DNA of 64,000 nt from a virus. Made by a program: the position numbers and the translations under genes. Below are positions 12,921-50,735 of the stretch, piece by piece. The first letter of the stretch is position 1, and each line of letters opens with the position of its first letter. The notes under the pieces are model-generated. The model ran no database searches, was not told the DNA's origin, and saw nothing but the letters and a program-made list of their open reading frames with translations. Where the stretch lies: the IMG/VR virus record IMGVR_UViG_3300029489_000102; one strand, 5' to 3'.

Positions 12921-13683
12921 ACCCAGATGTGTCCTGTTCCATGACAACTTCCAGAACTTCAAGTCCTACAACATTCCCAAGGCACAGCTGGTGATCGCCG
13001 ACATCCCGTATAACATCGGGTCGGACTTCTACGCCAGCCGCCCGGATTGGTATGTGGACGGAGATAACCGGAACGGAGAGAGCGATAAGGCCCGGAAAGC
13101 GGCATTCAATACCGACTTCACTTTCAATATCGCAGAATACTTCCATTTCTGTAACCGGCTGCTGAAGAAAGAACCCATGAAAGGGGAAAAAGGCGCACCG
13201 TGTATGATCGTGTTCTGTGCGTTCCAGCAGATCCCCAAGGTCATCACGGAAGCTGAGAAGTACGGGTTCAAAAATTATATCCCGCTGACCTTCTGTAAGA
13301 ACTACAGCCCGCAGGTCTTGAAAGCCAACATGAAGATCGTGGGTGCAACGGAGTATGCGCTGGTCCTCTACCGGGGCAAGCTCCCGAAGTTCAACAACGT
13401 CGGTAAGGACGGCAAGTCCCACATGATCTTCAATTGGTTTGACTGGAAACGAGATGGCAAGGACTATCCAAAGATCCATCCGTCCCAGAAACCGGTGTCC
13501 GTGCTGAAACGCCTGATCGAGATCTTTACCGATCCCGGAGATGTGGTCATCGACCCTTGCGCCGGCAGCGGAGCAACGCTCCGGGCAGCCAGAGAACTGG
13601 GACGTGACAGCTACGGATTTGAAGTGTCCAGGGATTTCTACCTGAAAGCCAAAGAGCAGATGGTCGGAGAGGAGGCTGTATGA
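12913..13683 (+). CDS. DNA methyltransferase (N6A/N4C type, DIPYN motif)
   Basis: ATG overlaps the previous stop. ADIPYN motif IV and C-terminal DPCAGSGAT motif I (beta-class order). Confidence 0.85.
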   Translation: MTEPRCVLFHDNFQNFKSYNIPKAQLVIADIPYNIGSDFYASRPDWYVDGDNRNGESDKARKAAFNTDFTFNIAEYFHFCNRLLKKEPMKGEKGAPCMIVFCAFQQIPKVITEAEKYGFKNYIPLTFCKNYSPQVLKANMKIVGATEYALVLYRGKLPKFNNVGKDGKSHMIFNWFDWKRDGKDYPKIHPSQKPVSVLKRLIEIFTDPGDVVIDPCAGSGATLRAARELGRDSYGFEVSRDFYLKAKEQMVGEEAV

Positions 13684-16151
13684 GCACCGAATCGAATATC
13701 CAACTGACCCTCGGCAGCCTCTTTGATGGCTCCGGGGGTTTTCCTTTGGGCGGTTTACTGACAGGCTGCATCACGCCGCTGTGGAGCAGCGAAGTGGAGC
13801 CCTTCGCCATCCGGGTCACGACCAAGCGTCTGCCCGAGGTGAAGCACTACGGGGATGTGTCCGCCATCAACGGCGCAGACTTGCCGCCGGTGGACATCAT
13901 CACCTTTGGCAGTCCTTGCCAGGACATGTCCATTGCCGGTAAACGAGACGGTCTGGATGGTTCACGGTCCAGCCTGTTCTATGAAGCGATTCGCATCGTG
14001 AAGGAAATGAGGTGTAAGACCAATGGAGCAAAACCAAGATTTATCGTATGGGAGAATGTGCCGGGGGCCTTCTCCTCAAACAAAGGGCAGGACTTCAAAG
14101 CAGTCCTCGAAGCCGTCATCGGTGTTAAGGAACCGTCCGCCGAGGTGCCTGCGCCTGACAAAAAAGGCTGGCCCGATGCTGATTACTATCTGGGAGACGG
14201 ATGGAGCGTCGCGTATCGAGTTCTTGACGCTCAATGGTGGGGCGTACCCCAAAGGAGAAAACGCATCTACCTTGTCGCAGATTTTGCAGACCACGGTGCC
14301 CCAAAAGTATTATTTGAGTCCGAAGGCGTGTCTGGGTATTCTGCGGAGGGCTTCCGTGCGTGGCAAAGAACTGCCTCCGGTGCTGAAAGCGGCGCTGGAA
14401 CGGCAGGCTGCTGCGGAAGACTCTGCCTGAACGACCAGGGCGGGGAGAGGATGGATGTGACCGAGGAGGTGACCGGAACACTCCGGGCACAAGAGCATGG
14501 GCATCAGCCGTGCGTCCTTGAAGCGGCCGGTTTCTGCACAGAACATTCCGCCAACGCGAGGAGCATCGGATATGAGGCAGAACGTTCTCCCACCCTCCGG
14601 GCCGGAGTCGTGCCTGCTGCCATCGCTCTGGAAAATCACCCGACTGATTGCCGGGTGAAGATCGCAAAGGACGGCAAGGTACAGACGCTGACCAGTCGGT
14701 GCGGTACGGGCGGTGGCAATGTCCCGTTGGTCATGGATGGCGTGGAAAACAGCGGGGAAGAGGTGGAAAACTCACCTGCAGTCACACTGAAAATTCGTTC
14801 TGGATGCGAGGGTGGCGGCAAAGGTGCTATCTGGCAGGAAGAAAAATCTGCTACCCTCGGCTGCAACAACGACCAGACCGTGTTCATCCCTTTTATGAAA
14901 GGAACGAGACCGCACTCACAGAGTGAAGCACCGACATGGAAACAGGGTGAAGTCGCAAATACACTCAATACGTTTGATGTCGGAGAACAGCGATGCAATG
15001 AACTGGCGATTAAAGCCTACGGTATCTGCTCCAAGGCCAGCCATTCCATGATGTCGGATAACCCCCATAGCGGTTTCTATGAAGCCAGTACCTCTCGGAC
15101 GTTGGATCGCAGCGGCGGTGACCCGACCTGTAACCAGGGTGGGCTGTGTATCTGTGAACCTGTTGTCTGCGTGGATCAGGGTGGAGGCAAGTCGAACTGT
15201 ACGGTGGACGAACAGGTGGCACCGCCTCTGGCCTGCACCCATGGCGGGGCTCCGGCAGTAGCCTTTACCCAGAACCAGCGGGATGAAGTCCGGGATCTGG
15301 GCGAGACGGCGGGTTCGCTGTCTGCACAGCCGGGAATGAAACAGCAGACCTTTGTGGCGCAGCCGGATGACGTGACGGCATTCCATGTGAATCAGCGCAA
15401 TGAGCTGATCGACCTGCATGGAAAGTCCGGTGCGCTCATGGCGACCCGAAGCGACCAGATGCAGACCTTCGTGCTGCAGGGCAACATAATCGGCCGCAAA
15501 GACGAGAATGGTCCGCAAGGTGACGGCATCAACGAAGATGTCTGCTTTACGCTGGATGCCACTGACCGTCACGCAGTCTGCGCACCGGAAGATGTCTACG
15601 CCATGACCACCGGCTCCTTCATGAGGGTGGAGGAGAATGTATCTCCCACCCTTATGGCCCGGGACTTTAAAGACCCTGCCACCATTGCACCGGTGCCACA
15701 CCTGAACGATGGCGTGTCGGGAACGGTGGCGACCGGGGCGCATCCCAGCGGATTCAATGGTCAGGACGCTTTCAATGACCGACTGGTCATCGATAACCCG
15801 GAGGCACAGCCGATCCCCGTGTCCTATACGGTTCGCCGTCTGACCCCGACCGAGTGCGCTCGGCTGCAAGGCTTTCCCGATTGGTGGTGCCGTGACCTCG
15901 AAACTGAGAATCCCACGGAAGAAGAAATCTCTTTCTGGCAGGATGTGTTTGAAACGCACCGCAGACTTGTGACTCAGGCCAAGAAGCCGAAGACGGAAAA
16001 GCAGATCCGAAAATGGCTGGCAGACCCGTATTCGGATGCCGCAGAGTATAAGCTCTGGGGCAATGGTGTCGCACTGCCGTGTGTCTTTTTTGTACTGTCC
16101 GGCATCGTCTGGGTAGCCGGATCGCCTGAGAATGGGAGTGAATCGGAGTGA
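13680..16151 (+). CDS. DNA (cytosine-5)-methyltransferase, large (823 aa, extended target-recognition region; possibly multispecific)
   Basis: Motif I FDGSGG, motif IV GSPCQDMSIAG, motif VI ENVPG, C-terminal RRLTPTECARLQGFPDWW. Long variable region between motifs VIII and IX. Confidence 0.9.
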   Translation: MSTESNIQLTLGSLFDGSGGFPLGGLLTGCITPLWSSEVEPFAIRVTTKRLPEVKHYGDVSAINGADLPPVDIITFGSPCQDMSIAGKRDGLDGSRSSLFYEAIRIVKEMRCKTNGAKPRFIVWENVPGAFSSNKGQDFKAVLEAVIGVKEPSAEVPAPDKKGWPDADYYLGDGWSVAYRVLDAQWWGVPQRRKRIYLVADFADHGAPKVLFESEGVSGYSAEGFRAWQRTASGAESGAGTAGCCGRLCLNDQGGERMDVTEEVTGTLRAQEHGHQPCVLEAAGFCTEHSANARSIGYEAERSPTLRAGVVPAAIALENHPTDCRVKIAKDGKVQTLTSRCGTGGGNVPLVMDGVENSGEEVENSPAVTLKIRSGCEGGGKGAIWQEEKSATLGCNNDQTVFIPFMKGTRPHSQSEAPTWKQGEVANTLNTFDVGEQRCNELAIKAYGICSKASHSMMSDNPHSGFYEASTSRTLDRSGGDPTCNQGGLCICEPVVCVDQGGGKSNCTVDEQVAPPLACTHGGAPAVAFTQNQRDEVRDLGETAGSLSAQPGMKQQTFVAQPDDVTAFHVNQRNELIDLHGKSGALMATRSDQMQTFVLQGNIIGRKDENGPQGDGINEDVCFTLDATDRHAVCAPEDVYAMTTGSFMRVEENVSPTLMARDFKDPATIAPVPHLNDGVSGTVATGAHPSGFNGQDAFNDRLVIDNPEAQPIPVSYTVRRLTPTECARLQGFPDWWCRDLETENPTEEEISFWQDVFETHRRLVTQAKKPKTEKQIRKWLADPYSDAAEYKLWGNGVALPCVFFVLSGIVWVAGSPENGSESE

Positions 16152-16957
16152 GCATCACCCTGACTGCTTTTCTTGAGCAGCTCGAAACCATCTGTGCCAC
16201 GAAACCGGACTATCGCATCGGCGGCAGCGGTACGGATGGAACCTGTGACTGCATTGGTCTTATCATCGGCGCAGTCCGCAGGGCTGGTGGAGGCTGGAAT
16301 GGCATCCACGGCAGTAACTACGCAGCCCGGAAACAGATGACGGACTTTGCAGAGATCAAATCCGCTGATCTGTTTGTGGGTGAGATCGTCTACAAAGCCC
16401 GAAAACCGGGAGACAGCAGCTACAATCTGCCGGACCGCTACAAGGCGAATGGCGGCGATTTGCTGGACTACTATCATGTAGGCGTCGTCACCAAGGTGCG
16501 TCCGCTGGAGATCACCCACTGTTCCACTACGGTGAACGGTAACAGCATCCACCGGGATGCAACGCTCGGCAAGTGGAAATACGGTGGCCGGCTGAAGGGC
16601 ATCGACTATGGAACGACTCAGGAGGAAACAGAGATGAGCGAAGTCAAGATGCAGGAGACCCAAAACAAGGCAACCGTTACGGGCGGAAGATTGAGTCTGC
16701 GCCAAGCTCCGTCCAAGACCGCAGACCGGCTGGCATGGATTCCCAATGGTACCCGGCTGGATGTGACCGGGCAAGGAGACGGCTGGTGTGCTGTAACCTA
16801 CGACACCATTCCCGGCTACGTCATGGAACGCTACCTGATCCTTGACGGAGAAACCGAGGAAAAGCCCAAGACGGATGCCGAGAGACTCGAAGCACTGGAA
16901 AACCAGGCGGCAGAGTTTGAGCGTCGTATCGCTGTGCTGGAGGGCGGAGCTGGCTGA
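16148..16957 (+). CDS. NlpC/P60-like peptidase with C-terminal SH3b domain and coiled-coil tail
   Basis: GTG overlaps the methylase stop. Cys (DCIGLI) and His (YHVGVV, ITHCST) spacing typical of NlpC/P60. SH3b-like GGRLSLRQAPS...GWCAVTYD. Confidence 0.5.
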   Translation: MSITLTAFLEQLETICATKPDYRIGGSGTDGTCDCIGLIIGAVRRAGGGWNGIHGSNYAARKQMTDFAEIKSADLFVGEIVYKARKPGDSSYNLPDRYKANGGDLLDYYHVGVVTKVRPLEITHCSTTVNGNSIHRDATLGKWKYGGRLKGIDYGTTQEETEMSEVKMQETQNKATVTGGRLSLRQAPSKTADRLAWIPNGTRLDVTGQGDGWCAVTYDTIPGYVMERYLILDGETEEKPKTDAERLEALENQAAEFERRIAVLEGGAG

Positions 16958-17026: not shown

Positions 17027-17160
17027 ATGATCTTGCACAGTCGTGTTTTGCACGAATCGTGTAAAAGGTCGAATATGAAGAATGTCGAGAAATGGCCTTG
17101 CTATTTCATCGATTCAGAGCGATATATGTGCTACCGAAAACAAAGAAAGGGGCACAAAGC
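17027..17160 (+). promoter_or_regulatory. conserved promoter/leader element, copy h (degenerate; ATGATC box 17027, -35 TTGCTA 17098-17103, -10 ATATAT 17122-17127)
   Basis: Member of a 9-copy family sharing upstream box, GGCCTTGCTAT, -10 region and transcribed leader GTGCTACCGAAA. Confidence 0.5.
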
Positions 17161-17161
17161 C

Positions 17162-18313
17162 ATGAAAAAGTACGCACTGAATATTGATGACCGCAAGGTT
17201 CTGGTAAGCCGCCTGATGGAGTTGACCGGGCTTCATTCCCGGTACACTTTCATGCCGCGCTGCGCTTACATCGTCGGCAGCTTCACCGTAGAAAAGGAGG
17301 GAACGCTTGTGATCGAAGACAGCGCTGCGCCGGAGATCATCCGGACGCTGCTGGACGAGGGCATCATCCGTGAGGAAGGTGCGGAAACCCCGGGGACTCC
17401 GGAAACGGAAGCCACCTGTGGGGAGGCCACGGAATCGGAGTGTGAAGAGTCAGATGAGACTGTGGACGGCACCGAAGATACCCAGCCCACCGTGGAACCG
17501 GGCGCAACTGCCGAGGAATCCCCGGAAGCTCAGGAACCGATGGACGTAGATGAGCCGATGGACACTGTGAATGACACCGATGCGGATGAGGCACCTGCTC
17601 CGACCGAACAGCCGACCTTGCAGGATGTGGATGAGCTGACCATCAGCCTGCCGATGTCCGGGCATACCGCCCAGAGCCTGCGGAATTTCCTGAACCTCAT
17701 GTACAGCCGAGGCCCTCTGCTGAACAAAGCGATGGGTACGAACTTCACGGTGTCGCAGGGACTTCTGGACGCACTGGAACAGGCAACGCCCCATACGATG
17801 AGCGAGATGCTGGATGAGCTGGAAGAATACCGCCTGGGTGCCGGTACCACCGGCATGACCGGCATCCAGATCACGGCGGAGAAGATCAGCCTGGCTTTTG
17901 CCGGTCCGCTGACGCAGGAGAAGGTCCGTGCCTACACGGAACTCTGCGCCGCCATGAACCGGATGGCAATCGCTCAGAAGCGGATCCAGGCAAAGACCGT
18001 CAACGATGCCAATGAGAAGTACGCACTCCGCATCTGGCTGATCCGACTGGGTCTGAATGGAGATGAACACAAGACCATCCGCAAACTCCTGATGCAGAAC
18101 CTTTCCGGTCATGCGGCATTCCGCACCGAGGAAGATGCCGAAAAGTTCCGGGTCAAGGAAAAGGCAAAGCGGGATGCGCTGAAAGCCGCAAAACAGGCGG
18201 CACACGGCGGCGTTTCTGCCGCCGAGGAAACGGCCGAAGCGGCAGCGGAAGCCCCCACACAGCCCGACTGTGGGGCAGACGGCGCACCCCAGGCGCAGGA
18301 GACGGGAGCGTAA
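17162..18313 (+). CDS. hypothetical protein with long acidic low-complexity insert; C-terminal ~80 aa homologous to the C-terminus of the downstream amidoligase-like protein
   Basis: Shared motif NEKYALRIWLIRLGLNGDEHKTIRKLLMQNLSGHAAFR versus NEKYAMRCWMLRLGFIGDEFKTAREILLRNMEGNASWR. D/E/T/P-rich region about aa 95-190. Confidence 0.5.
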   Translation: MKKYALNIDDRKVLVSRLMELTGLHSRYTFMPRCAYIVGSFTVEKEGTLVIEDSAAPEIIRTLLDEGIIREEGAETPGTPETEATCGEATESECEESDETVDGTEDTQPTVEPGATAEESPEAQEPMDVDEPMDTVNDTDADEAPAPTEQPTLQDVDELTISLPMSGHTAQSLRNFLNLMYSRGPLLNKAMGTNFTVSQGLLDALEQATPHTMSEMLDELEEYRLGAGTTGMTGIQITAEKISLAFAGPLTQEKVRAYTELCAAMNRMAIAQKRIQAKTVNDANEKYALRIWLIRLGLNGDEHKTIRKLLMQNLSGHAAFRTEEDAEKFRVKEKAKRDALKAAKQAAHGGVSAAEETAEAAAEAPTQPDCGADGAPQAQETGA

Positions 18314-18437
18314 GCTCCTGACCCCTTATGTGGGCCGCCGGATAAGAGAGAGCTTCTTCCATTGTACCGATATTAACTCTGAAAATGTACAGTATCAAGT
18401 GTGTTTTTTGCCATAATGTACACGATCTTTGTCCTGA

Positions 18438-18544
18438 ATGATCGGTGATTATTTGACCCTTTATGGCCTTGCTATCCTCCCCACATGACGGTAATATGCA
18501 CATACCGCAAGGGGAACAGAACAAGACAAAAGGAGATAAACACC
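18438..18544 (+). promoter_or_regulatory. conserved promoter/leader element, copy a (ATGATCGGTGA 18438; -35 TTGCTA 18469-18474; -10 TAATAT 18492-18497)
   Basis: Same architecture as the other copies. An inverted copy of the upstream box (TGTACACGATC) lies at 18417-18427. Confidence 0.6.
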
Positions 18545-19480
18545 ATGAACGATAAGACCAGAGAGCAGATCGAAGCCATGAAGATGCAGACCATCGGGGT
18601 CGAGGTTGAGATGAACAACATCACCCGCGAGAAAGCCGCCAGAAAGGTTGCCGAGTTCTTCGGGACGACCGCATGGTACGCAGCCAGCGAGTACGGGTAC
18701 ATGAGCTGGGCTTGCAAGGACCAGCAGGGCAGGGTTTGGAAATTCCAGCGAGACATCAGCATCCACGGACCGGAAGCTGAAAAGTGCGAGATGGTGACCC
18801 CCATCCTTACCTACGAGGACATCGAGACCTTGCAGGCAATCATCCGACTGCTCCGCAAGGCTGGCGCAAAGTCCAGCCCCAGTCGGGGATGCGGCGTTCA
18901 CATCCACATCGGCAAGGGCAACCACACCCCCAAGACCCTGCGGAATCTGGTCAACATCATGGCTGCCCACGAAGAACAGATCGGCAGAGCGATTCGCATC
19001 GATGCAGGCAGAACCGGACAGTATTGCCGAGTGGTCGACCCCCGATTCCTTGACCAGCTGAACAAGAGAAAGCCGACGACCATGACTGAGCTTGCCGACA
19101 TCTGGTACGCCAGCAACCACGCAAACTACGGCAGAACGGCACATTACAATGAAAGCCGATACCATATGCTGAACCTCCACGCCACCTTCACCAAGGGCAC
19201 GATTGAATTCCGGCTTTTCCAGTTTGCCGACCCCAGCGACGGCAAGCAGAACGGACTTCACGCCGGTGAGCTGAAAGCCTACATCCAGCTTTGCCTCGCA
19301 ATGAGCCAGCTTGCCAAGATGGTGAAGACCGCAAGCCCCAAGCCCCAGCAGACCGACAACGAGAAATATGCAATGCGGTGCTGGATGCTTCGGCTGGGCT
19401 TCATCGGGGACGAGTTCAAAACAGCACGGGAGATCCTTCTGCGGAATATGGAGGGCAACGCAAGCTGGCGCAACGCATAA
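18545..19480 (+). CDS. putative amidoligase (Amidoligase_2 / GS-like carboxylate-amine ligase family)
   Basis: IGVEVEM N-terminal strand and GCGVHIHIG motif are reminiscent of the phage amidoligase family. Genomic association with GGCT-like genes. Assignment from recalled family features, not a search. Confidence 0.55.
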   Translation: MNDKTREQIEAMKMQTIGVEVEMNNITREKAARKVAEFFGTTAWYAASEYGYMSWACKDQQGRVWKFQRDISIHGPEAEKCEMVTPILTYEDIETLQAIIRLLRKAGAKSSPSRGCGVHIHIGKGNHTPKTLRNLVNIMAAHEEQIGRAIRIDAGRTGQYCRVVDPRFLDQLNKRKPTTMTELADIWYASNHANYGRTAHYNESRYHMLNLHATFTKGTIEFRLFQFADPSDGKQNGLHAGELKAYIQLCLAMSQLAKMVKTASPKPQQTDNEKYAMRCWMLRLGFIGDEFKTAREILLRNMEGNASWRNA

Positions 19481-19504
19481 GCGCCGACTTGCACGGGCAC
19501 CTAT

Positions 19505-19526
19505 CGGGCGGGCAACCGCCCTTTAG
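19505..19526 (+). terminator. hairpin GGGCGGGCAACCGCCC + TTTA
   Basis: GC stem directly after the amidoligase-like gene. Confidence 0.45.
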
Positions 19527-19550
19527 GCGGTAGAAGGAGGGCGATACGCC

Positions 19551-19781
19551 ATGAAAAATGAAACCAGAGAAACCGCACCCGGCAGAACGTTCCGGGTGGT
19601 CATCACCGAGACCCTCAAACGGGTGGTCGAGGTCAACGAATCCGAGATCAAGGAACCCACGATGGATGAGGCCGTCCAGGCGGTCAGCGACTGGTGGCAC
19701 AACGGACAGATCATTTTGGAAGCCGAGGACTTTGACGGCGTGGACTTTTCCGCAGCGGAAGGCGGTGAGGTCGGTGATTGA
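19551..19781 (+). CDS. small acidic hypothetical protein
   Basis: 76-aa ORF with GGAGG RBS. Confidence 0.4.
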   Translation: MKNETRETAPGRTFRVVITETLKRVVEVNESEIKEPTMDEAVQAVSDWWHNGQIILEAEDFDGVDFSAAEGGEVGD

Positions 19782-20310
19782 TCGCTTCCGGTTCGACAAG
19801 GGCGGGATCAGCAGAAAGCCGTCCCGGTACTATCTTGCATACGGCAGCAACCTTGACATGGAACGGATGGAACACAGATGCCCCTATGCGGTGCCGGTCG
19901 GTGTTACCGAGATCTACGGATACCGACTCCTGTTCAAGAAAAGTAAGACCGGGTGCTACGCCACCATCGAGCAGGACGCCAATGAAAGCGTTCCAGCTGT
20001 GGTCTGGTTGCTTTCCGAGTTTGATGAACTGCTGCTGGACCGGTACGAAGGCTGCCCTCGGTACTATTACAAGAAGCAGTTCCAGCTTCCCGTCTGGAAT
20101 CTGGATGGGCATCGGATGAAGAAGTTGAAAACCTGCATGGCATACATCCTGCACGAAGAACGGCAGCTCGGCTGCCCCAGCCATGAGTACTTCGACCTGC
20201 TGGCAGACGGGTATACGGGGTGGGGATTCCCGACAGATACATTGCACAGCGGGCTGTCTTCCAGCATCGGAAAGGCGGCAGCGGTGGAGTTCCTCAAAGA
20301 AATCGACTGA
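19765..20310 (+). CDS. gamma-glutamyl cyclotransferase-like (GGCT/AIG2 family) protein 1
   Basis: YYLAYGSNLDMERMEHRCP motif. GTG start overlapping the upstream small ORF; the first ~70 codons of ORF 19558 are an alternate-frame artefact. Confidence 0.65.
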   Translation: MRSVIDRFRFDKGGISRKPSRYYLAYGSNLDMERMEHRCPYAVPVGVTEIYGYRLLFKKSKTGCYATIEQDANESVPAVVWLLSEFDELLLDRYEGCPRYYYKKQFQLPVWNLDGHRMKKLKTCMAYILHEERQLGCPSHEYFDLLADGYTGWGFPTDTLHSGLSSSIGKAAAVEFLKEID

Positions 20311-20350
20311 GTACAATTTTGACGATTCTGTGAGGAAATCATTGTGCAGG

Positions 20351-20442
20351 ATATGATGCACATTGGCCTTGCTATTCGGGCAAAACAGAGGCATATATAG
20401 CATACCGCCAGACAACAGCGGAAACGAAAGGAGCAAGCAACT
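20351..20442 (+). promoter_or_regulatory. conserved promoter/leader element, copy i (degenerate; -35 TTGCTA 20369-20374; -10 ATATAT about 20393-20399)
   Basis: GGCCTTGCTATT ... GCATATATAGCATACCGCC matches the family consensus. Confidence 0.5.
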
Positions 20443-20925
20443 ATGAACGAAAAGAAGTATTACATCGCATACGGCAGCAACCTATCGGTGGAGCAGATGG
20501 CACAGCGGTGCCCGGATGCCCGCATTGTGGGTCAGGCTGTTCTGGAAGACTGGGAGCTGGCCTTCCACGGCTGTGCGACCATCCTGCCGAACAAGGGAAA
20601 GAACACGCCGGTTCTGGTGTGGGAGATCTCCGCTGGCGATGAGAAGAACCTCGACATCTACGAAGGTTATCCGAACTTCTATCGCAAGGAAAACATGACG
20701 GTCGAGGTGGTGAGCAAAGATGCAGAGCCCATGACCGTCACCGCAATGGTCTACATCATGGAAGACACCTACGGCGAGCGGATGCCGAGCCGGTACTACT
20801 ATCGGGTCCTTCACGATGGCTATAAGGCATTTCATTTCCCGATGCACATTCTGGAAGGTGCACTGAAGAAGTGTACCAGCAACAAGAAACTCGCGGAGAA
20901 TATGATCAAGGAGGTGCAGGGATGA
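20443..20925 (+). CDS. gamma-glutamyl cyclotransferase-like (GGCT/AIG2 family) protein 2
   Basis: YYIAYGSNLSVEQMAQRCP, LEDWELAF, VLVWEI, LDIYEGYP motifs. Confidence 0.75.
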   Translation: MNEKKYYIAYGSNLSVEQMAQRCPDARIVGQAVLEDWELAFHGCATILPNKGKNTPVLVWEISAGDEKNLDIYEGYPNFYRKENMTVEVVSKDAEPMTVTAMVYIMEDTYGERMPSRYYYRVLHDGYKAFHFPMHILEGALKKCTSNKKLAENMIKEVQG

Positions 20926-21380
20926 GATTTCCGGATAGAAAGACCGTGGAATACCTGCGGACACAGTTTCCGGTCGGCTGCCGTGTGGTGCTGGACCGAA
21001 TGGACGATGCTCAGGCACCGGCCTTGGGTACGCAGGGGACCTGCCGGGGCGTGGACGATGCAGGCAACGTGATGGTTTCGTGGGATACGGGCGGCAGCCT
21101 GAACGTTGCCTACGGCGCGGACAGTTGCCACCGTGTGGCGTCCGAGGTCGAGGTAAAGAAATCGCTCGACCACCTCGGTAAGACGCGACACGCGGGCCCA
21201 CGTTGCCCACGGTGCGGCGCTGAGCCGGACTGTTACGACCACCAGCAGCAAGCCCTCAGCCGCTACGCAGAGATCATGGTGTGCAACGCCTGCGGAACGA
21301 TAGAGGCGATGGAAGACTTTCTTGGGCAAGCAACACCGCTGACTGACTGGGCGATCGTGAAAGCGGGGTGGGTCGAATGA
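20922..21380 (+). CDS. DUF4314-like protein with C-terminal zinc ribbon
   Basis: ATGA overlap with the previous gene. CPRCG...CNACG motif. N-terminal domain resembles DUF4314 of Firmicutes mobile elements (from memory). Confidence 0.45.
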   Translation: MRFPDRKTVEYLRTQFPVGCRVVLDRMDDAQAPALGTQGTCRGVDDAGNVMVSWDTGGSLNVAYGADSCHRVASEVEVKKSLDHLGKTRHAGPRCPRCGAEPDCYDHQQQALSRYAEIMVCNACGTIEAMEDFLGQATPLTDWAIVKAGWVE

Positions 21381-21748
21381 AGGTGCTTTTGATCGAGCCG
21401 ATGGAACATCCGAAGGAGATCGATATCCAGCCCACGCTGGAAGAGTACTATAAGGTGCTGGACTGCGACTGCATCACGGCAACCTACCCGTGGCCGGAAC
21501 CGGTCGCTCTGGTCACGGACGACAACGGACTGTTTACGGACAAACTGTTCAGCCGGTATATCCGGGAACTGAAACAGCCGATCCGAGGCGGCTTCTTCCT
21601 CTGTGGGTTGGGCGAGGAAGACTTCACAGACTTGCCGCCGGAACTCATGGACAAGTTCAGGAAACGGTTCTGGAATCCGGAACTCTTCGTTCGCACCGCA
21701 TCGGGACTCGCGGCCATCCAAACCAGCGACGGCACACAGCCCGAATAA
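21377..21748 (+). CDS. DUF3846 domain protein
   Basis: MKVLLIEPMEHPKEIDI...LEEYYKVLDCDCITATYPWPEPVALVTDDNGLF matches the DUF3846 pattern (MKvl.iEP.k.P...I...LE.....VGG.I....P..D.vaLicNEEGKL). ATGA overlap. Confidence 0.6.
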   Translation: MKVLLIEPMEHPKEIDIQPTLEEYYKVLDCDCITATYPWPEPVALVTDDNGLFTDKLFSRYIRELKQPIRGGFFLCGLGEEDFTDLPPELMDKFRKRFWNPELFVRTASGLAAIQTSDGTQPE

Positions 21749-21756
21749 AGAAAACG

Positions 21757-21790
21757 GCCCCTTCTGCCTAGGCAGGAGGGGTTGGCTTGT
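21757..21790. terminator. 11-bp stem hairpin CCCCTTCTGCC-TA-GGCAGGAGGGG
   Basis: Strong GC hairpin after DUF3846. May terminate both convergent transcripts. Confidence 0.5.
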
Positions 21791-21945
21791 GGCTGGTGGG
21801 GGCTTCGGATCATCGAGAACCCTTTCCCAGTTTACTGTATATTAGCTCTGGTTTGCAAGAATAGCAAGCCGGGAAAGAGCAGGATCTTCCACGATCTTTA
21901 GGCGGCAGAACTGTGTATATGGTCAACGGAAAACGGGGACAACGA

Positions 21946-21974
21946 GGAACAGCCCCAGCCTTGCTGGGGGTTCC
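21946..21974 (-). terminator. hairpin GGAACAGCCCCAGC/GCTGGGGGTTCC downstream (minus strand) of the 21988-22236 gene
   Basis: Inverted repeat read in the sequence. Confidence 0.45.
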
Positions 21975-21987
21975 TTGGCGGATTCCC

Positions 21988-22236
21988 TTAAAGGAAATCC
22001 CGCATGCTCATGCCGACTTCGTAGAGTTGCTGCTCAAGGCTCATGTAATGCCATTCTTCTTCTTCGTCCTCTTCCTCCTCCAGTTCTTCGGGGAAAGGGT
22101 CGTGTTTCCAACCGCCCTTGCGGTATTCTTCTTCCCGGATGTCGTTGCGGTCGAAAATGTCCAGCTCGTATTCTTCTTCAAGCTCTGCAATGCGGTCCTC
22201 GATGATGCTTTCGATCTCGCTGATGGTCTTTTTCAT
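21988..22236 (-). CDS. small highly acidic protein (minus strand), hypothetical
   Basis: MKKTISEIESIIEDRIAELEEEYELD...EELEEEEDEEEEWHYMSLEQQLYE. The only convincing minus-strand gene inside the cassette region. RBS GGAGG. Confidence 0.45.
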   Translation of the reverse strand: MKKTISEIESIIEDRIAELEEEYELDIFDRNDIREEEYRKGGWKHDPFPEELEEEEDEEEEWHYMSLEQQLYEVGMSMRDFL

Positions 22237-22350
22237 GGTGGTTGCCTCCGTTTTCCGTGTGTGTTTTCCTTTCGGTGTCTGTATATTCGCTCTAAAATAC
22301 ATATTTATCAAGGCCATTTATCGATATAGATCCACCAAAGATATGGGCAG

Positions 22351-22442
22351 ATGATCGTCGATAATATGACGTTTTATGGCCTTGCTATTATGCCGAAACG
22401 ACGGTAATATGCACATACCGAAACGGAAAGGAAGGAAAAAAC
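22351..22442 (+). promoter_or_regulatory. conserved promoter/leader element, copy b (ATGATCGTCGA 22351; -35 TTGCTA 22383-22388; -10 TAATAT 22405-22410)
   Basis: Family consensus. Confidence 0.6.
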
Positions 22443-22649
22443 ATGGAACGCTACACCTACGAAATCACCTTCACCCGGCTGGACGGCCAGCCCGACGAGA
22501 CTCAGCAGTACACCGACGAGGGGTTTGCCAGAGAATGCTTCCGACTTTTCGATGAGCCGGACAGCGCCGAGCTGTACAGCCGCATCCGCCTGACCCGCCA
22601 CGACTGGGAGACCGGCACGGACGAGGTTCTGGAGACCTTAGAATTCTGA
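22443..22649 (+). CDS. small hypothetical protein (68 aa)
   Basis: ORF following the conserved leader and RBS. Confidence 0.45.
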   Translation: MERYTYEITFTRLDGQPDETQQYTDEGFARECFRLFDEPDSAELYSRIRLTRHDWETGTDEVLETLEF

Positions 22650-22664
22650 AAGGGGAGAACGAAC

Positions 22665-23219
22665 ATGAAAATGGAACTGGACAAGAAGCTGGACACAATC
22701 CGGCTCAATGTATTGGCCGCCAATTTTGGCGACCTTGCCACTCGCCGTCAGATGATTCAGGAGTTCGGGGATTACCCGGATGCCCTGTGGGGTGTCAATG
22801 AAAATGGGGAGAAGGTGATGCTCAGCATCCAGAAAAACGGCATCACGGAGCGTGTGTTCCAGTCGAACCGGTGGGTTCGGGTCAACGAATACGACGCCGA
22901 CGGCTGTGAGGCCGGCGAGACCTACGAAGGGCGCTGGGCAGAGTGCCCGAAACCCACGGCGACGGATACGGATGAGGAACTGGAGCTTTCGGATGCCCAG
23001 AGTGCCCGCAACGATGAAATCTACAACGCTGCGTATGAATTCTGCAAGGTCATGGCGGAGGATGACCGCCTCGAGTGGAACATGGAGATTCTCGGAGAAC
23101 TGGCAGACCTTGCCGCCGAGCTCCTGACCCGGCACGGCAGCCGTGTGCGCTACCCTGCGGTGGTCACCGAACCGGACGGAAGGCAGTATATCGAGGAATA
23201 CCACGGCGGCATAAAGTGA
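22665..23219 (+). CDS. hypothetical protein (184 aa)
   Basis: ORF with GGGGAG RBS. Confidence 0.5.
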   Translation: MKMELDKKLDTIRLNVLAANFGDLATRRQMIQEFGDYPDALWGVNENGEKVMLSIQKNGITERVFQSNRWVRVNEYDADGCEAGETYEGRWAECPKPTATDTDEELELSDAQSARNDEIYNAAYEFCKVMAEDDRLEWNMEILGELADLAAELLTRHGSRVRYPAVVTEPDGRQYIEEYHGGIK

Positions 23220-23244
23220 CACATTTTCCGGAGTGAAGAGCCAG

Positions 23245-23325
23245 ATGATCGTGTACATTAGCCGCTTGCTATCAGCCCTGAGTGACGGTAATATACAGTC
23301 ACAAAAACGAAGGGAGATAAACACC
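23245..23325 (+). promoter_or_regulatory. conserved promoter/leader element, copy c (ATGATCGTGTACA 23245; -35 TTGCTA 23266-23271; -10 TAATAT 23289-23294)
   Basis: Family consensus with leader ACAGTCACAAAAACGAAGGGAGA. Confidence 0.65.
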
Positions 23326-23586
23326 ATGACCTATACGAACATCCGACTTTTCACTGCCAACGGCATTCCGGAGGCAGTCAGCAACCTTTGGTACGGTACC
23401 GACTGCTCGGTGGTCGAGATCCAAGACGCCATTGAAGATGCCAAGAACGCAGCAGACCTTCTGCGGCGCATCCAGAAGATGAAACTTCTGAGGAAGGTAG
23501 CCCTCGACCGGGAAACCGAACAGAAGGTGCGGTTCAAGACCACCGATTGCTGGGGCAATATAAGCTACCTCGAAATCCGCAAATAA
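23326..23586 (+). CDS. small hypothetical protein (86 aa)
   Basis: ATG after GGGAGA RBS of the conserved leader. Confidence 0.5.
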   Translation: MTYTNIRLFTANGIPEAVSNLWYGTDCSVVEIQDAIEDAKNAADLLRRIQKMKLLRKVALDRETEQKVRFKTTDCWGNISYLEIRK

Positions 23587-23680
23587 ACCGGATGGATAGG
23601 GGCAAGGGGCTGGGAAACCGGCCCTTTGCTCGTGTCCATCCAATGTCATACCGCCCGAATGTACACAAATCTAGGGGCGA

Positions 23681-23790
23681 ATGATCGTGTATCATAGCCG
23701 CTTGATAGTGTGCGAAAGTGACGGTAATATGTGCATACCGAAAGGGAAAACCCCACGGAAAACACAAAAAACACGCTGGAGGATACAAAA
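23681..23790 (+). promoter_or_regulatory. conserved promoter/leader element, copy d (ATGATCGTGTA 23681; -35 TTGATA 23702-23707; -10 TAATAT 23725-23730; extended leader CCCCACGGAAAACA...GGAGGA)
   Basis: Family consensus. Shares the leader insert with copies f and g. Confidence 0.65.
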
Positions 23791-24240
23791 ATGACGAAGA
23801 ATGAAAACCGCATCAATAAGCTTTTCGAGGAACTGGTTCCCACGAGCGGCAAGGCGGATAGCCTCGCCGGAGAACTGGTCAGAGCCACCGCACGGATCGG
23901 GTACCGATTCTTCAACGACGGCGACATGGTCAACCAGGGCTACGGCAAAGAAACCTGCAACCCCGCGGCCCGGTTCCTGATCGCCAAGGGCAACGCAGAG
24001 ATCAGCAGCCTGACCGTAGCCCTTTGGGAGATCTTCAGCGAGGATGCCTACGAAAAGGTTCTGGATACCCTTGAGGGTGCGGTTGCCGACTACATCAAGA
24101 AGAACCCCGACCTTCGCAGCCAGCCCACCAAGGATATGTGGGATTACCGCGATATGGCGGAAGACTGGGACGACAGCTGCGATGAGGAAGAGGACTACGA
24201 CGACTGCGAAGATGACTACGATGAGGAAGAAGACTACTGA
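23791..24240 (+). CDS. hypothetical protein with poly-acidic C-terminal tail (DSCDEEEDYDDCEDDYDEEEDY)
   Basis: 149-aa ORF with GGAGGA RBS. Confidence 0.5.
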   Translation: MTKNENRINKLFEELVPTSGKADSLAGELVRATARIGYRFFNDGDMVNQGYGKETCNPAARFLIAKGNAEISSLTVALWEIFSEDAYEKVLDTLEGAVADYIKKNPDLRSQPTKDMWDYRDMAEDWDDSCDEEEDYDDCEDDYDEEEDY

Positions 24241-24252
24241 GCAGAAAACGGC

Positions 24253-24284
24253 GGGGGCTTGCCTGAAAGGGCAGCCCCTTTTCC
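24253..24284 (+). terminator. hairpin GGGGCTTGCC-TGAAA-GGGCAGCCCC + TTTTCC
   Basis: GC stem plus T-run after the acidic-tail gene. Confidence 0.5.
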
Positions 24285-24323
24285 TGTGCCTGGACTCTCA
24301 AATATACACCGATCCTGGCGTGA

Positions 24324-24406
24324 ATGATCGTGTAATCTGCGGCCTTGCTATCTGCGGGACGTGACGGTAATATACAGTCACAAAAACGAAAGCGAGGTAC
24401 ATAGAC
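24324..24406 (+). promoter_or_regulatory. conserved promoter/leader element, copy e (ATGATCGTGTA 24324; -35 TTGCTA 24345-24350; -10 TAATAT 24368-24373)
   Basis: Family consensus. Confidence 0.65.
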
Positions 24407-24601
24407 ATGAAAAAGCAGACCCTGACCAGGAAGCAGCAGAAAGCCCTGCTGGACATCGCAAAGCGCCTGATGGTGGAGGTGGAAAACCGAGGCGACCTTG
24501 AAGCGCGCGGCTGCGACAGCGAGGATTTCATCGAGGTTCCCGTCTGGGGCATCCAGAAAGCCATGGAGGAAGCCTACCTTCTGGGCAAGGCGGAGAAGTA
24601 A
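24407..24601 (+). CDS. small hypothetical protein (64 aa)
   Basis: ORF after the conserved leader. Confidence 0.45.
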   Translation: MKKQTLTRKQQKALLDIAKRLMVEVENRGDLEARGCDSEDFIEVPVWGIQKAMEEAYLLGKAEK

Positions 24602-24721
24602 GCCCGACACAGCCCCCACAAAGGGGGGCGCAGATGCAAGCCAACAAACTCCCCCAACCAAACCGCACAAGCCCCACACAGGGGCTGTGTGGCGAGGTGG
24701 TGGGGCAACGGAGGAATGAGT

Positions 24722-24940
24722 ATGAACGACGAAAGAGTCATGGACCTTATCGTGGACATCTACAACAATATGAATGACGAGGATAAGGCTGGCTTCACGC
24801 TGGAAGCTGCCAAGGAGATGGTCAAGGACCAGATTGAAATTGATTTTTCCCAAGGTCGTTGGCCGCTGGAATACGACCCCCAGCTCTTTTATGAAGTAAT
24901 CCGGGAATTCATTGAACAGGATGCCGAGGACGGAGAGTGA
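24722..24940 (+). CDS. small acidic hypothetical protein (~72 aa)
   Basis: ATG 7 nt after GGAGGA. Upstream part of ORF 24689 is probably not translated. Preceded by hairpin CCACACAGGGGCTGTGTGG (24674-24692). Confidence 0.4.
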   Translation: MNDERVMDLIVDIYNNMNDEDKAGFTLEAAKEMVKDQIEIDFSQGRWPLEYDPQLFYEVIREFIEQDAEDGE

Positions 24941-24968
24941 TGTACATTCTGCCCGGTATTCCGGGCGG

Positions 24969-25073
24969 ATGATCGTGCAGCATAGCCGCTTGCTATCCTC
25001 CCCACATGACGGTAATATGTGCATACCGAAAGGGGAAGACCCTACGGAATGAAAAAACACGGAGGATTTCACC
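24969..25073 (+). promoter_or_regulatory. conserved promoter/leader element, copy f (ATGATCGTG 24969; -35 TTGCTA 24990-24995; -10 TAATAT 25013-25018; extended leader)
   Basis: Family consensus. Confidence 0.65.
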
Positions 25074-25358
25074 ATGAAGAAGCATCTGAACAACTTCCCG
25101 GAACACAGCATCAGCATCGAGAGCTACTACGACCTGCTCAGTCCCTGCAACGACAGCATCCTGCAGTTTGGCGACCGGGTTCTGGTTGCCAAAACGAACT
25201 GGAAGGGCGGCGTGGAGGCTGCGGTTTACGGATTCGCCGAGGACCCCAAGGAAGGGCTTTCATCGATCGAGTGCCGACTGGAACTGCTGAAGATTTCGGA
25301 TGAGGTCTTCTCGGATGCCGGACACGCCATCGAATGGTGCATCCGGAACGCACACTGA
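25074..25358 (+). CDS. hypothetical protein (94 aa)
   Basis: ORF after the conserved leader with GGAGGA RBS. Confidence 0.5.
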   Translation: MKKHLNNFPEHSISIESYYDLLSPCNDSILQFGDRVLVAKTNWKGGVEAAVYGFAEDPKEGLSSIECRLELLKISDEVFSDAGHAIEWCIRNAH

Positions 25359-25452
25359 GATATGGGCGGGGGCTCCCTGCGGGGGGCTTTTGCTCGTTGC
25401 GGCAGATCTTCCGTGCGCAGGATATACACATATCCGACAAGACTGTGGGCGA

Positions 25453-25561
25453 ATGATCGTGTATCATAGCCGCTTGATATACTTCCCCAGTGACGGTAAT
25501 ATACAGTCACACCGAAGGGGAGAAGCCCCACGGAAAACAAAGCATACGGAGGATACAGACC
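25453..25561 (+). promoter_or_regulatory. conserved promoter/leader element, copy g (ATGATCGTGTA 25453; -35 TTGATA 25474-25479; -10 TAATAT 25497-25502; extended leader)
   Basis: Family consensus. Confidence 0.65.
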
Positions 25562-25939
25562 ATGATGAAGAAAGCCAAAACCTACCTTGCCAGCATTCAG
25601 GCGGCTGCCACCGAGCGAGAGCTGACCGGCATTGAGCTCATGTTCAAGCAGGACATGAGCATCAACTGCGATGACCTTGGCAAACTTTGCCGGGCAGCCG
25701 AGGACAAGCGGTACACCCTGCGGAACAACGCCGAAACCCTGCAGCTCAAGGACATCCTTTTCCAGCGGACGAGAGCCGAGATGGATGCCTACCACGACAT
25801 GAGCCACAAGCCGGAGAGCTGGACGGCCGAGGACATAGAACGCCAGCGCATCCGATTCTGCGCGGTCTGGCAGGTCATCGAGGAGGCAGAGCTGGTCGAT
25901 GAGTACGAGGCTTGGAAAGAAGCCAACCCCAACGCATAA
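25562..25939 (+). CDS. hypothetical protein (126 aa)
   Basis: ORF after the conserved leader with GGAGGA RBS. Confidence 0.5.
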   Translation: MMKKAKTYLASIQAAATERELTGIELMFKQDMSINCDDLGKLCRAAEDKRYTLRNNAETLQLKDILFQRTRAEMDAYHDMSHKPESWTAEDIERQRIRFCAVWQVIEEAELVDEYEAWKEANPNA

Positions 25940-26002
25940 CCAATAAAGGACACACGCCCCGCAGGGGGCTGTGTCTCGTATCCGCCGTGTTTGATATACA
26001 AA

Positions 26003-26030
26003 GGACTTCTTCGGAGGTCCTTTTTCTTTT
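26003..26030 (+). terminator. intrinsic terminator GGACTTC-TTCG-GAGGTCC + TTTTTCTTTT
   Basis: 7-bp stem (one G-U pair) plus T-run. Separates the cassette region from the packaging module. Confidence 0.6.
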
Positions 26031-26060
26031 GCCCATTTTTACAGAAGGGAGGGATAGCCA

Positions 26061-26537
26061 ATGGCTACCAGAGGCAGAAAACCGAAGCCGACCGCCATGA
26101 AGGAACTGGAAGGCAATCCGGGCAAGCATCCGCTGAATACCAGCGAACCGAAGCCCACAAAGAAAGCACCGGCGTGTCCGAAATGGCTGGAGCCGGAAGC
26201 AAAAAAAGAATGGCGGCGTCTTGCCAAGCAGATGGAAGCCATCGGCATCCTGACCGAAGTGGACATGGCTGCCTTCGCCGGCTATTGTCAGGCATACGCA
26301 CGATGGAAAGAAGCAGAAGAATTCATCACCCAGCACGGCACCATCGTCAAAACGCCCTCCGGCTATTGGCAGCAGGTGCCGCAGGTCTCCATTGCACAGA
26401 CCTATCTGAAAATCATGAACCGCTTTGCCGAGCAGTTCGGTCTGACCCCATCCTCCCGAAGTCGGATCATTGCCTCGGATTGCAGCCCTGCGGATGCTGC
26501 TGATGAGATGGAAAACCTGCTGGGAGGTGGCGGATGA
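26061..26537 (+). CDS. terS: terminase small subunit (P27 family)
   Basis: MATRGRKPKPTAMKELEGNPGKHPLN...GILTEVD...FAEQFGLTPSSRSRI: typical P27-family TerS pattern. Confidence 0.85.
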   Translation: MATRGRKPKPTAMKELEGNPGKHPLNTSEPKPTKKAPACPKWLEPEAKKEWRRLAKQMEAIGILTEVDMAAFAGYCQAYARWKEAEEFITQHGTIVKTPSGYWQQVPQVSIAQTYLKIMNRFAEQFGLTPSSRSRIIASDCSPADAADEMENLLGGGG

Positions 26538-35638: not shown

Positions 35639-35974
35639 TCAACCGAGTATATCGTGTTTACGAACCCTCTTCTGGGCAAGTTCATAAACTTCTTCATCTG
35701 CACGAACTCCGATGACAATTATCATCATGGATGTTTCAGTACGACGAAGTTGGTAAACAATGCGCAGACCAGCGGAGCGAAGTTTGATTTTCATTAAACC
35801 TGCAAGACTGGTGCTGCTATGATTGCCGAGAGGTTTTCCGTAGCCATTCTCATCGACAGGAAGAGGATTCTGCTGAACTTTCTTGATTGCTTTTAGAACA
35901 AGATTGCGCTGACTTCCATCTAAACCTTTGAGGTCTTTTTCCGCTTCTGGGAGGTATTCGACTTTCCAACTCAT
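35639..35974 (-). CDS. relE: type II toxin RelE/ParE family
   Basis: MSWKVEYLPEAEKDLKGLD...IKLRSAGLRIVYQLRRTETSMMIIVIGVRADEEVY: canonical RelE/ParE pattern. 4-bp overlap with the upstream antitoxin. Confidence 0.8.
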   Translation of the reverse strand: MSWKVEYLPEAEKDLKGLDGSQRNLVLKAIKKVQQNPLPVDENGYGKPLGNHSSTSLAGLMKIKLRSAGLRIVYQLRRTETSMMIIVIGVRADEEVYELAQKRVRKHDILG

Positions 35975-36303
35975 TCGATTTCTACCTCGTCAAAACCGGA
36001 GAGGTCGTCTTCAGTGACACCGAGCCGACGGTTCATTTCCTCTTCGGAAATCAAGGTAGAAGGGTCAAAGTGCGCCATACGTTCAGAGGCGACCGCCAAA
36101 AGGCGAGCGTCATTCAGTTCGTCCATCAGGCGGACATACTCGTCAGGAGAGATAAGGACACACTCCGCAGTGTTGTTCTTCATGACAACCTTTGCACCAC
36201 ACTGCTTAACCTCATCAAAAATCTTGCCGGCAAGCCCTCGATTAAACTGGGTGATAGGAACGGTATTGGTGATTGCACTCATAACAGATGCCATAATTGT
36301 CAA
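35971..36303 (-). CDS. phd: type II antitoxin Phd/YefM family
   Basis: Upstream partner of relE. NNTAECVLISPDEYVRLMDELNDARL matches the Phd/YefM core. Confidence 0.7.
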   Translation of the reverse strand: MTIMASVMSAITNTVPITQFNRGLAGKIFDEVKQCGAKVVMKNNTAECVLISPDEYVRLMDELNDARLLAVASERMAHFDPSTLISEEEMNRRLGVTEDDLSGFDEVEIE

Positions 36304-50723: not shown

Positions 50724-50735
50724 GAAAGGAGAATT

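Follow-up and report, generated by a model that had tools for sequence, protein, structure and literature searches.

A repeated promoter-like module in front of exchangeable accessory cassettes of a Ca. Heliusvirales prophage

T4-type phages contain elements called PeSLs, in which a terminator stem-loop is combined with sigma-70-like promoter motifs and which are repeated in hyperplastic regions (PMC2839356; PMC4122927). These regions hold small, non-essential open reading frames (ORFs), and recombination between PeSL copies inserts, deletes, or replaces genes (PMC2839356; PMC4122927). In p576, a plasmid of the pLS20 family, several conserved regions of ~140 bp known as EGeRS2 are located 5' of variable establishment operons, and each copy has a strong sigma-A promoter with a protein-binding repeat just 5' of the -35 (PMC8708921). 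The operator is a direct heptamer repeat bound by Reg, a ribbon-helix-helix (RHH) repressor encoded in the regulon, and the leaders contain short inverted repeats that were proposed to lengthen RNA half-life (PMC8708921). Here, we describe an array of 12 promoter-like modules and their cassettes in IMG/VR virus record IMGVR_UViG_3300029489_000102, which was analyzed as one stretch of 64,000 nucleotides (the window). The phage that carries the array is a temperate, siphovirus-like Ca. Heliusvirales prophage of Clostridia. The array is probably a hyperplastic accessory region, in which host sigma-A-type promoters, each with a site for a DNA-binding protein and a stabilizing leader, would drive cassettes that recombine.

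A first-pass annotation of this sequence had described nine near-identical promoter/leader elements, each driving its own cassette. All nine were found on the + strand, at 17027, 18438, 20351, 22351, 23245, 23681, 24324, 24969, and 25453. The total is 12, however, with three further copies on the - strand (-35 at 22311, 21867, and 18398), and the idea of one uniform element gave way to two sub-types and two promoter-only copies with no ORF. What had been taken for an inverted copy of the upstream box at 18417-18427 does exist, but it is the box of the 18398 (-) copy. Scanning both strands with the loose pattern TTG[ACT]TA-N16-19-(-10-like) gave 12 matches in 64 kb, all at 17098-25474 within the array and none elsewhere in the window. 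The 12-mer TGACGGTAATAT occurs exactly at 18486, 23283, 23719, 24362, 25007, and 25491 and with one mismatch at 22399. When up to two mismatches were allowed, it had 12 matches in 64 kb compared to 2.3 ± 1.7 expected, and none of 100 shuffles reached 12. The 11-mer box ATGATCGTGTA is likewise enriched and clustered in the array, being exact at 23245, 23681, 24324, and 25453, with one mismatch at 24969 and two mismatches at 22351 and 17027.

Every copy is intergenic, and ten are followed at 20-80 nt by a ribosome-binding site (RBS) and an ATG, in front of genes that were also called independently. The modules are ~100-130 bp long and 70-85% identical to each other. As the earlier annotation had it, the copies look like a promoter with a leader placed 5' of an RBS and ATG. 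The putative core promoter consists of a -35 TTGMTA, a 17-bp spacer, a TAATAT-type -10, and a G at -14; sigma-70-like hexamers are present in 12 of 12 copies, with 8-9 of 12 positions matching consensus. The last six spacer bases and the -10 divide the copies into sub-type A (seven copies; nGACGG followed by TAATAT) and sub-type B (five copies, at 17098, 20369, and the three on the - strand; nAGAGn followed by (G/T)AATAT, GATATA, or CATATA). A pattern with an unconstrained spacer gave 655 unique matches over all the fetched loci, 423 with nGACGG and 149 with nAGAG[CGT], proportions that are biased because the loci were fetched partly with those motifs. A sporulation-sigma reading of GGTAATAT was dropped, since sub-type B is without the GG and both hexamers fit sigma-A. 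Most units were said to end in GC hairpins, and such hairpins are indeed present after the SH3-domain gene and after cassette genes P7, P11, P12, P14, P15, and P16. They close 7 of the 9 + strand units, with only a weak one after P4 and none after P10. An Rfam E-value search of 16-27 kb found only a sub-threshold ctRNA_p42d match, which is the terminator at 25998-26032.

The module is conserved well beyond the window. Multi-copy arrays of the pattern were found in >80 IMG/VR contigs, and an exact-pattern scan of IMG/VR gave at least 119 loci, mostly with 2-5 exact matches and up to 11 pattern matches. When one genome from each species was searched with TTGMTA-N11-TGACGGTAATAT, many Clostridia had multi-copy matches. 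The hosts were Blautia, Lawsonibacter, Faecalibacterium, Wujia, Mediterraneibacter, Eubacterium, Ruminococcus, Acutalibacteraceae, and Hominilimicola, with the matches in prophages. Single matches in unrelated phyla are at about the chance level for the pattern (~35 single matches by our own estimate, not a computed value). According to tblastn, a single phage group accounts for the multi-copy loci, and its large terminase (TerL) proteins are 59-97% identical. Their layout is fixed, with methylases followed by the array (amidoligase, GGCT, DUF4314, Nmad4, and others) and then terS, terL, and portal. Four NatCom Heliusvirales genomes have 1-4 modules each, always including one 5' of the amidoligase, with a -35 of TTGMTA, TGGATA, or TGGCTA. 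These genomes are unbiased for the promoter because they were retrieved by amidoligase DNA similarity and not by the motif. Given their 1-4 modules, the window lineage therefore carries an expanded version of an ancestral feature.

Next to be considered is the footprint upstream of orthologous amidoligases, which were aligned from 25 non-redundant lineages with 59-100% protein identity. The blocks that are kept are TACAC(A), TTGTGTA, the -35, the spacer end with the -10, GGAGG, and the ATG, together with the leader block ACCGAAAGG, i.e. (A/C)C(G/A)AAAGG. The sequence between these blocks varies freely, and a 10-nt indel splits the two classes of distance between box and -35. The element is real and conserved as a unit across the phage order, it is probably an order-wide regulatory and recombination module, and the structural reading of the first-pass annotation was largely right.

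The upstream box has the core TGTGTA, often with an inverted TACACA partner, which gives the dyad form TACACAAT-N14-ATTGTGTA. The inverted partner is found 24-26 bp upstream in 36 of 67 copies, compared to 3.3 ± 1.9 in shuffles. The box had been placed at about -55, but its distance varies: it is 21 nt 5' of the -35 in five copies, ~31 nt in the 18438 and 22351 copies, and further upstream than that in the 17027 copy. Taken over the whole non-redundant set, the start of the right half-site is either 15-16 or 25-26 nt 5' of the -35, positions that are one helical turn apart. The conserved box/dyad is 9 or 19 nt upstream of the -35, with the dyad center near -60 or -70 from the inferred start, taken as 7 nt after the -10. 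The divergent pair 18398 (-)/18469 (+) has one common dyad, ~70 bp from both inferred starts. From this spacing, we infer a DNA-binding protein positioned on a defined helix face, as class I activators are; such placement would be typical of an activator or co-regulator. An exact copy of the box ATGATCGTGTA was also seen in the early control region at L244:1724-1734, ~7.8 kb upstream of the window start. It lies between the terminator that follows the Cro-like gene and a long ORF-free stretch 5' of the HTH_26 gene, and no array-type promoter is behind it.

Candidates for the box-binding protein were considered. The CI repressor was ruled out: this phage has CAACTTGCG-like repeats between CI and Cro, those of NatCom_991 are AACTTCA-like, and the box is common to both phages. 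The box is not the immunity operator, since phages with different CI operators share it. An early-operon protein of 248 aa (L244:3410-4156) contains sigma-70 region 4 only (Pfam 6e-12); its PDB matches cover only region 4 of WhiG/FliA, leaving the N-terminal 180 aa unmatched, and it is not conserved in other GenBank Heliusvirales. No homolog of this protein, of the HTH_26 protein, or of the product of window 4558-5169 was detectable in the other element-bearing (NatCom) phages, and the factor would therefore be a host protein or an unrecognized core phage protein. The 16 cassette proteins gave no DNA-binding Pfam or PHROG match. The earlier suggestion of co-regulation by a dedicated box-binding factor or by the leader is in line with the phased box/dyad and the conserved leader, although the search produced no factor.

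Downstream of the -10, the predicted transcript opens with a purine-rich, Shine-Dalgarno (SD)-like tract (ACCGAAAGGGAAAAC), which is followed by the GGAGG RBS and ATG. In a set of 149 leaders without redundancy, purines make up a fraction of 0.8-0.93 at nt 10-20 after the -10, and RRARGGR starts 9-10 nt after the -10 in 58. A short GC-rich hairpin is present in 56 of the 149, compared to 17 ± 3.7 in shuffles, and its stems differ at the same place (GGGG/CCCC, GGGC/GCCC, CCGCC/GGCGG, and CGCTT/AAGCG). The additional leader insert described earlier exists, but its carriers are the copies at 23681, 24969, and 25453 (family D2). STAB-SD of cryIIIA and the SP82 polypurine stabilizer are 5' mRNA stabilizers of Firmicutes, from Bacillus. 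Like them, the leader has an SD-like polypurine tract a few nt from the 5' end and a long way 5' of the true RBS, although there is no sequence homology to either. By analogy, the leader could act as a 5' stabilizer or expression enhancer.

The two ORF-less copies, 18398 (-) and 21867 (-), are conserved across host genera along with the first 40-60 transcribed bases. The 21867 (-) RNA has folding z-scores of -2.4 to -3.2, and its relatives have a 5' hairpin with different inner stems and a U run directly behind. The 18398 (-) RNA folds no better than shuffles (z -1.0 to -1.5). Both are candidate sources of RNAs of ~45-90 nt and may serve as small regulators, insulate the array from read-through, or be relics.

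Gain and loss of cassettes by homologous recombination had also been proposed, and events were read from nucleotide alignments of relatives to the window. Whole-cassette differences with breakpoints in or at modules were found, but some breakpoints fall on RBSs or on the ends of genes. In four events, the junctions are inside a module or at its edge. Three relatives (L196, L230, and L145) have an extra promoter-led cassette, with window 22400-22432 (-10 to leader) aligning twice; module 7 of the window is therefore a recombinant of two modules. One relative (L172) is without exactly 24290-24960, which is module 10 with P13 and P14, and the junctions are just 5' of two consecutive boxes. Another (L153) has an additional promoter-led cassette at 24288-24413, and in L037, 22432-23242 (P9 and P10) is replaced from the leader end to the start of the next box. 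Two other events have junctions at RBSs or gene ends. Cassette content is very different among genera and order is different in some, for example with DUF6900 before P11 in Mediterraneibacter-type phages. The array is down to one or two cassettes in L164, and four loci (L045, L085, L079, and L052) run collinear with the window (94-95%). In L171 (a Hominilimicola metagenome-assembled genome), cassettes led by such a promoter also occur between terL and portal (3428 and 4263), which suggests that units can settle outside the main array. These alignments place the edges of the exchangeable units at the modules, and some exchanges, at least, take place inside a module.

Taken together, these data are consistent with the following model. 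The GC hairpin ending the previous unit would usually open the module. A protein on the box/dyad, at either of two positions 10 bp apart, would act as activator or co-regulator of a sigma-A-type core promoter (TTGMTA, 17 bp, TAATAT, G at -14) read by host RNA polymerase. The polypurine tract, sometimes with a GC hairpin, would protect the 5' end and raise expression, and a strong GGAGG RBS with its ATG would start translation. About ten short mono- to tricistronic units would be transcribed in parallel and in a co-ordinated manner, and our best guess is that they are not under immunity control but are expressed during lytic growth or entry. With 70-85% identity among them, the modules could also serve as portable homology through which unequal or inter-phage recombination would add, delete, and swap cassettes.

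Several observations weigh against this model. With no ORF behind the 18398 (-) and 21867 (-) copies, the arrangement of one promoter per cassette is incomplete. The generic sigma-70 match is 8-9 of 12 only, and a generic scan of the region gave 6 matches compared to 5.7 expected, which is not an enrichment. Ordinary recognition by sigma-A does not account for the spacer end (nGACGG or nAGAGn), which is nearly invariant and could mean a different or additional factor. RNAalifold found no consensus structure in 32 leaders, because the register of the short stems shifts. No box-binding protein was identified among the candidates examined. The two events with other junctions, loss of P10 and module 8 (22668/23313) and a swap of P14 (24615/24934), have their breakpoints at RBSs or gene ends. 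Finally, part of the variation in cassette order seen with the strict pattern was rejected, as mutated copies had been missed.

Another possible explanation, although a less likely one, is that the modules are phage-specific middle or late promoters needing a phage-encoded factor, which would be a dyad activator or a sigma-region-4-like protein; the spacer end would then be part of the site of that factor or of a modified polymerase. This would account for a dyad at activator-like, helically phased positions and for a spacer end that, unlike ordinary sigma-A spacers, is nearly invariant in two forms. The 248-aa region-4-only protein of the early operon, a DUF1492/Sigma70_r4 protein in NatCom_991, and the exact box at L244:1724 also fit. 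However, the three candidate proteins named above have no detectable homolog in the element-bearing NatCom phages, and the hexamers with 17-bp spacing are ordinary sigma-A features. In addition, TTGMTA and TGGATA/TGGCTA are mixed in single genomes, and there is therefore no genome-wide co-variation with a factor. The units could instead be morons that are constitutively expressed from the resident prophage and benefit the lysogen through exclusion, defense, or physiology, which we regard as unlikely. Each unit has its own promoter and terminator and is carried by some relatives but not others, no link between the units and immunity repression is visible given that the box is not a CI operator, and a Phd/ParE-like pair elsewhere shows that the prophage does hold morons. 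On the other hand, the GC content at third codon positions (GC3) of the cassettes, 0.63-0.77, is that of the rest of the phage; the gene families are ones linked to incoming mobile DNA; and the array is ancestral and fixed beside the methylases, in contrast to scattered insertions.

That the repeats are mainly recombination or duplication scars, as linkers or phage recombinase targets, with a promoter look that is secondary, is highly improbable. Several indel breakpoints are inside modules and the phage has three serine recombinases, but conservation falls precisely on the positions of a promoter, a leader, and an RBS, while the spacers that separate them vary. Each module points the same way as the gene behind it, and no resemblance to serine-recombinase crossover sites was seen. 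Conservation also holds where TerL is only ~60% identical, and recent duplication is therefore not the cause. A more speculative proposal, and a doubtful one, joins several observations: the array would be the first-entering end of a cos genome, a protein at the dyad would switch the regulon, and the ORF-less RNAs would regulate or insulate it. The array may be the first-entering end because it is directly upstream of terS in a phage with HNH, P27-type terS, and HK97-type terL. The genes point to that end, so that each would enter with its 3' end first, and a short module for each gene would permit expression once a few hundred bp are inside. If true, the array would be the phage counterpart of plasmid leading regions.

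From left to right, the modules and their cassettes are as follows. Module 1 (17027..17161, +; sub-type B) has its -35 TTGCTA at 17098-17103 and -10 GATATA at 17121-17126, with two direct GCAC..TCGTGT repeats in its upstream region, and would drive P1 (17162..18313, +). Module 2, or 'orph1' (18270..18429, -; sub-type B), has its box at 18429-18419, -35 at 18398-18393, and -10 at 18375-18370; it has no ORF, and its RNA would start near 18363 (-) and run antisense into the 3' end of P1. Module 3 (18438..18544, +; sub-type A; box 18438-18448, -35 18469-18474, -10 18492-18497) precedes an operon of amidoligase (18545-19480), DpnD/PcfM-like (19551-19781), and GGACT/GGCT-like (19774-20310) genes on the + strand. 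Module 4 (20351..20442, +; sub-type B; -35 20369-20374, -10 near 20392-20398) has a CCGC...GCGG leader hairpin, and behind it on the + strand are GGACT/GGCT-like (20443-20925), DUF4314 (20922-21380), and DUF3846 (21377-21748) genes. Module 5, or 'orph2' (21745..21900, -; sub-type B; -35 21867-21862, -10 21844-21839), also has no ORF; its predicted RNA of ~85 nt has a 5' hairpin and then a bidirectional terminator (21755-21783) and U run. Module 6 (21988..22345, -; sub-type B; -35 22311-22306, -10 22288-22283) is followed by P8 (22236..21988, -), an acidic protein of 82 aa with an isoelectric point (pI) of 4.1.

The remaining six modules are all sub-type A on the + strand. Module 7 (22351..23219; -35 22382, -10 22405-22410) precedes P9 (22443-22649, 68 aa) and P10 (22665-23219, 184 aa), and module 8 (23245..23586; -35 23266, -10 23289-23294) precedes P11 (23326-23586, 86 aa). 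Module 9 (23681..24240; -35 23702, -10 23725-23730) has a long leader with a GGG..CCC hairpin and is followed by P12 (23791-24240), a protein of 149 aa with an acidic tail. Behind module 10 (24324..24940; -35 24345, -10 24368-24373) are P13, a DUF6900 protein (24407-24601), and P14 (24716-24940). Modules 11 (24969..25358; -35 24990, -10 25013-25018) and 12 (25453..25939; -35 25474, -10 25497-25502) both have long leaders and precede P15, an Nmad4 protein (25074-25358), and P16 (25562-25939, 125 aa), respectively.

An independent gene caller found the same 16 genes. The gene content reported earlier was confirmed for Amidoligase_2, two GGACT proteins, DUF4314, and DUF3846, and DpnD/PcfM, DUF6900, and Nmad4 were added; the small proteins are often acidic as reported, with 8 of the 16 products at pI 4.0-4.6. 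Neighboring phage genes have a GC3 of 0.63-0.79. Amidoligase with GGCT, DUF4314, DUF3846, Nmad4, and DpnD/PcfM are typical of incoming mobile DNA. The claim of an anti-defense or take-over arsenal was drawn from this family reputation and from acidity, with no match to a known anti-defense protein, and found no further support; an anti-defense role of the cassettes is best treated as a hypothesis. PHROGs gave no informative match for the cassette proteins except for P1, which resembles part of the amidoligase family, and P10, P12, and P16 had no match when their sequences were searched against PDB. P12 is the most conserved protein without an assigned family, being found in most arrays and having 951 unnamed homologs. 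AlphaFold predicts a bundle of helices and an acidic tail that is disordered (pLDDT 77.7), and this model had no Foldseek PDB match below E = 0.9. P1 (383 aa, acidic with pI 4.5) has a low-complexity middle, and its C-terminal part is in common with the adjoining amidoligase, both being in one PHROG amidoligase family (PHROG 2443). Direct repeats D9 and D15 link the two genes (17162-18313 and 18545-19480). P1 thus looks like a non-catalytic amidoligase paralog.

The GenBank relatives of the window are classified in Ca. Heliusvirales, and the same prophage is recorded in many human-gut assemblies. Nearly all the window genes are on the + strand. Upstream of the window, the same phage has an ImmA/CI module, the Cro-like gene, the HTH_26 protein, the sigma-70-region-4-only protein, a PD-(D/E)XK exonuclease, an ssDNA-binding protein, and PolA. 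Pfam matches define a replication and modification block of DUF932, SNF2 helicase, MazF-like, D5-type primase-polymerase, SAM synthetase, and HNH genes. The MazF/PemK-like toxin domain (5689-6399, +) has an extra N-terminal part of ~100 aa; its gene is directly 5' of the primase-polymerase gene and overlaps it, no obvious antitoxin gene was seen, and the NatCom phages have MazF-like genes at the same place. The left neighbors of the array (11652..16957, +), which belong to the same block, are a ParB-N6/N4 methyltransferase (MTase) fusion, an N6/N4 MTase, a C5 MTase, and the SH3-domain protein, and they are kept together with the array across the phage group.

The right boundary of the array (25940..26537, +) consists of terminator hairpins at 25948-25975 and 26000-26023, followed by terS (Terminase_4; 26061-26537), then terL, portal, and head genes (Pfam). 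The packaging set is HNH, P27-type terS, and HK97-type terL, and the portal is HK97-type. Nucleotide identity among relatives is 87-93% for 25992-26598 compared to ~74% for the array. The ~70 bp 5' of terS (25992-26060) are far better conserved than the adjoining array, in line with a packaging site that acts in cis or with a site for late control. The tail genes include an ORF of 1957 aa (36440-42313), and at 45759-53485 (+) a 1654-aa protein with a CotH kinase-like domain at its end and an 872-aa protein with a terminal GDSL lipase/acylhydrolase domain. Just upstream of the 1957-aa ORF, the tail module contains a low-GC3 gene pair at 35642-36303 (-) that weakly matches the antitoxin Phd/YefM and the toxin ParE and resembles a toxin-antitoxin moron. 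The genes for lysis and integration are a holin, lysins, and three serine recombinases; the recombinases (56.6-60.3 kb) are large genes in tandem at the prophage end (56585-60335, +; 340, 503, and 404 aa).

Ca. Heliusvirales are among the most prevalent human-gut phages, and their gene regulation is almost uncharted. The paper defining the group does not mention promoters, this region, or these genes; a full-text literature search for the motif string gave no relevant paper, and one for DUF4314/DUF3846 gave nothing useful. The module offers a precise sequence signature for an order-wide accessory, possibly host-takeover, regulon, with which the regulon membership of genes can be defined in any new genome. 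It also offers a concrete mechanism for accessory-gene exchange in these phages and candidate strong promoter and 5'-UTR (untranslated region) parts for Clostridia, which are hard to engineer.

The array can be compared to several known systems. Phage morons, as described by Hendrix and colleagues, are independent promoter-gene-terminator units. The cassettes resemble them as autonomous units between conserved phage genes that are present or absent among relatives, but all the units here share one module, one ancestral array, and phage-like base composition. Cassettes of integrons lack promoters, have attC sites, and are found beside an IntI tyrosine integrase and a single Pc promoter. They were ruled out, as each unit has its own promoter, only serine recombinases and no IntI were found, and the unit ends have terminator hairpins but no attC-like imperfect palindrome. 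The pre-early region of T5 and the early region of T7 have anti-defense genes at the first-entering end. Plasmid leading regions are anti-defense islands, also at the first-entering end, with single-strand (Frpo) promoters (PMC11541004). Readings of the module as a single-stranded DNA promoter or a recombinase site were rejected. No array protein matches a known anti-defense family, in contrast to such islands. The likeness lies in small, variable, often acidic proteins beside DNA methylases, in dedicated predicted strong promoters, and in a position abutting a probable cos/pac end.

The resemblance to PeSLs includes the sigma-70-like promoter in each copy, the adjoining stem-loop terminators (7 of 9 on the + strand), the variable small ORFs between conserved flanks, here MTase and terS, and the breakpoints within the motif. 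PeSLs belong to lytic T4-like myoviruses, however, while the window is a temperate Clostridia prophage of another phage order, and the sequences are unrelated. The module described here adds an upstream dyad/box and a conserved transcribed leader, and it forms one array at a fixed place beside terS, compared to several regions in T4-type phages. The idea of a mobile regulatory cassette thereby takes in temperate phages of anaerobic Gram-positives in addition to the lytic T4-like ones. EGeRS2 differs in being on a conjugative plasmid, whereas the array is in a phage and its upstream repeat is inverted and further upstream; Reg is encoded in its own regulon, whereas no DNA-binding protein was seen among the 16 cassette products. 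Both systems have several conserved regulatory regions before variable operons, a sigma-A promoter (predicted in the array) in each copy, an upstream repeat, and inverted repeats in the leader, and EGeRS2/Reg is the closest regulatory parallel in Gram-positives.

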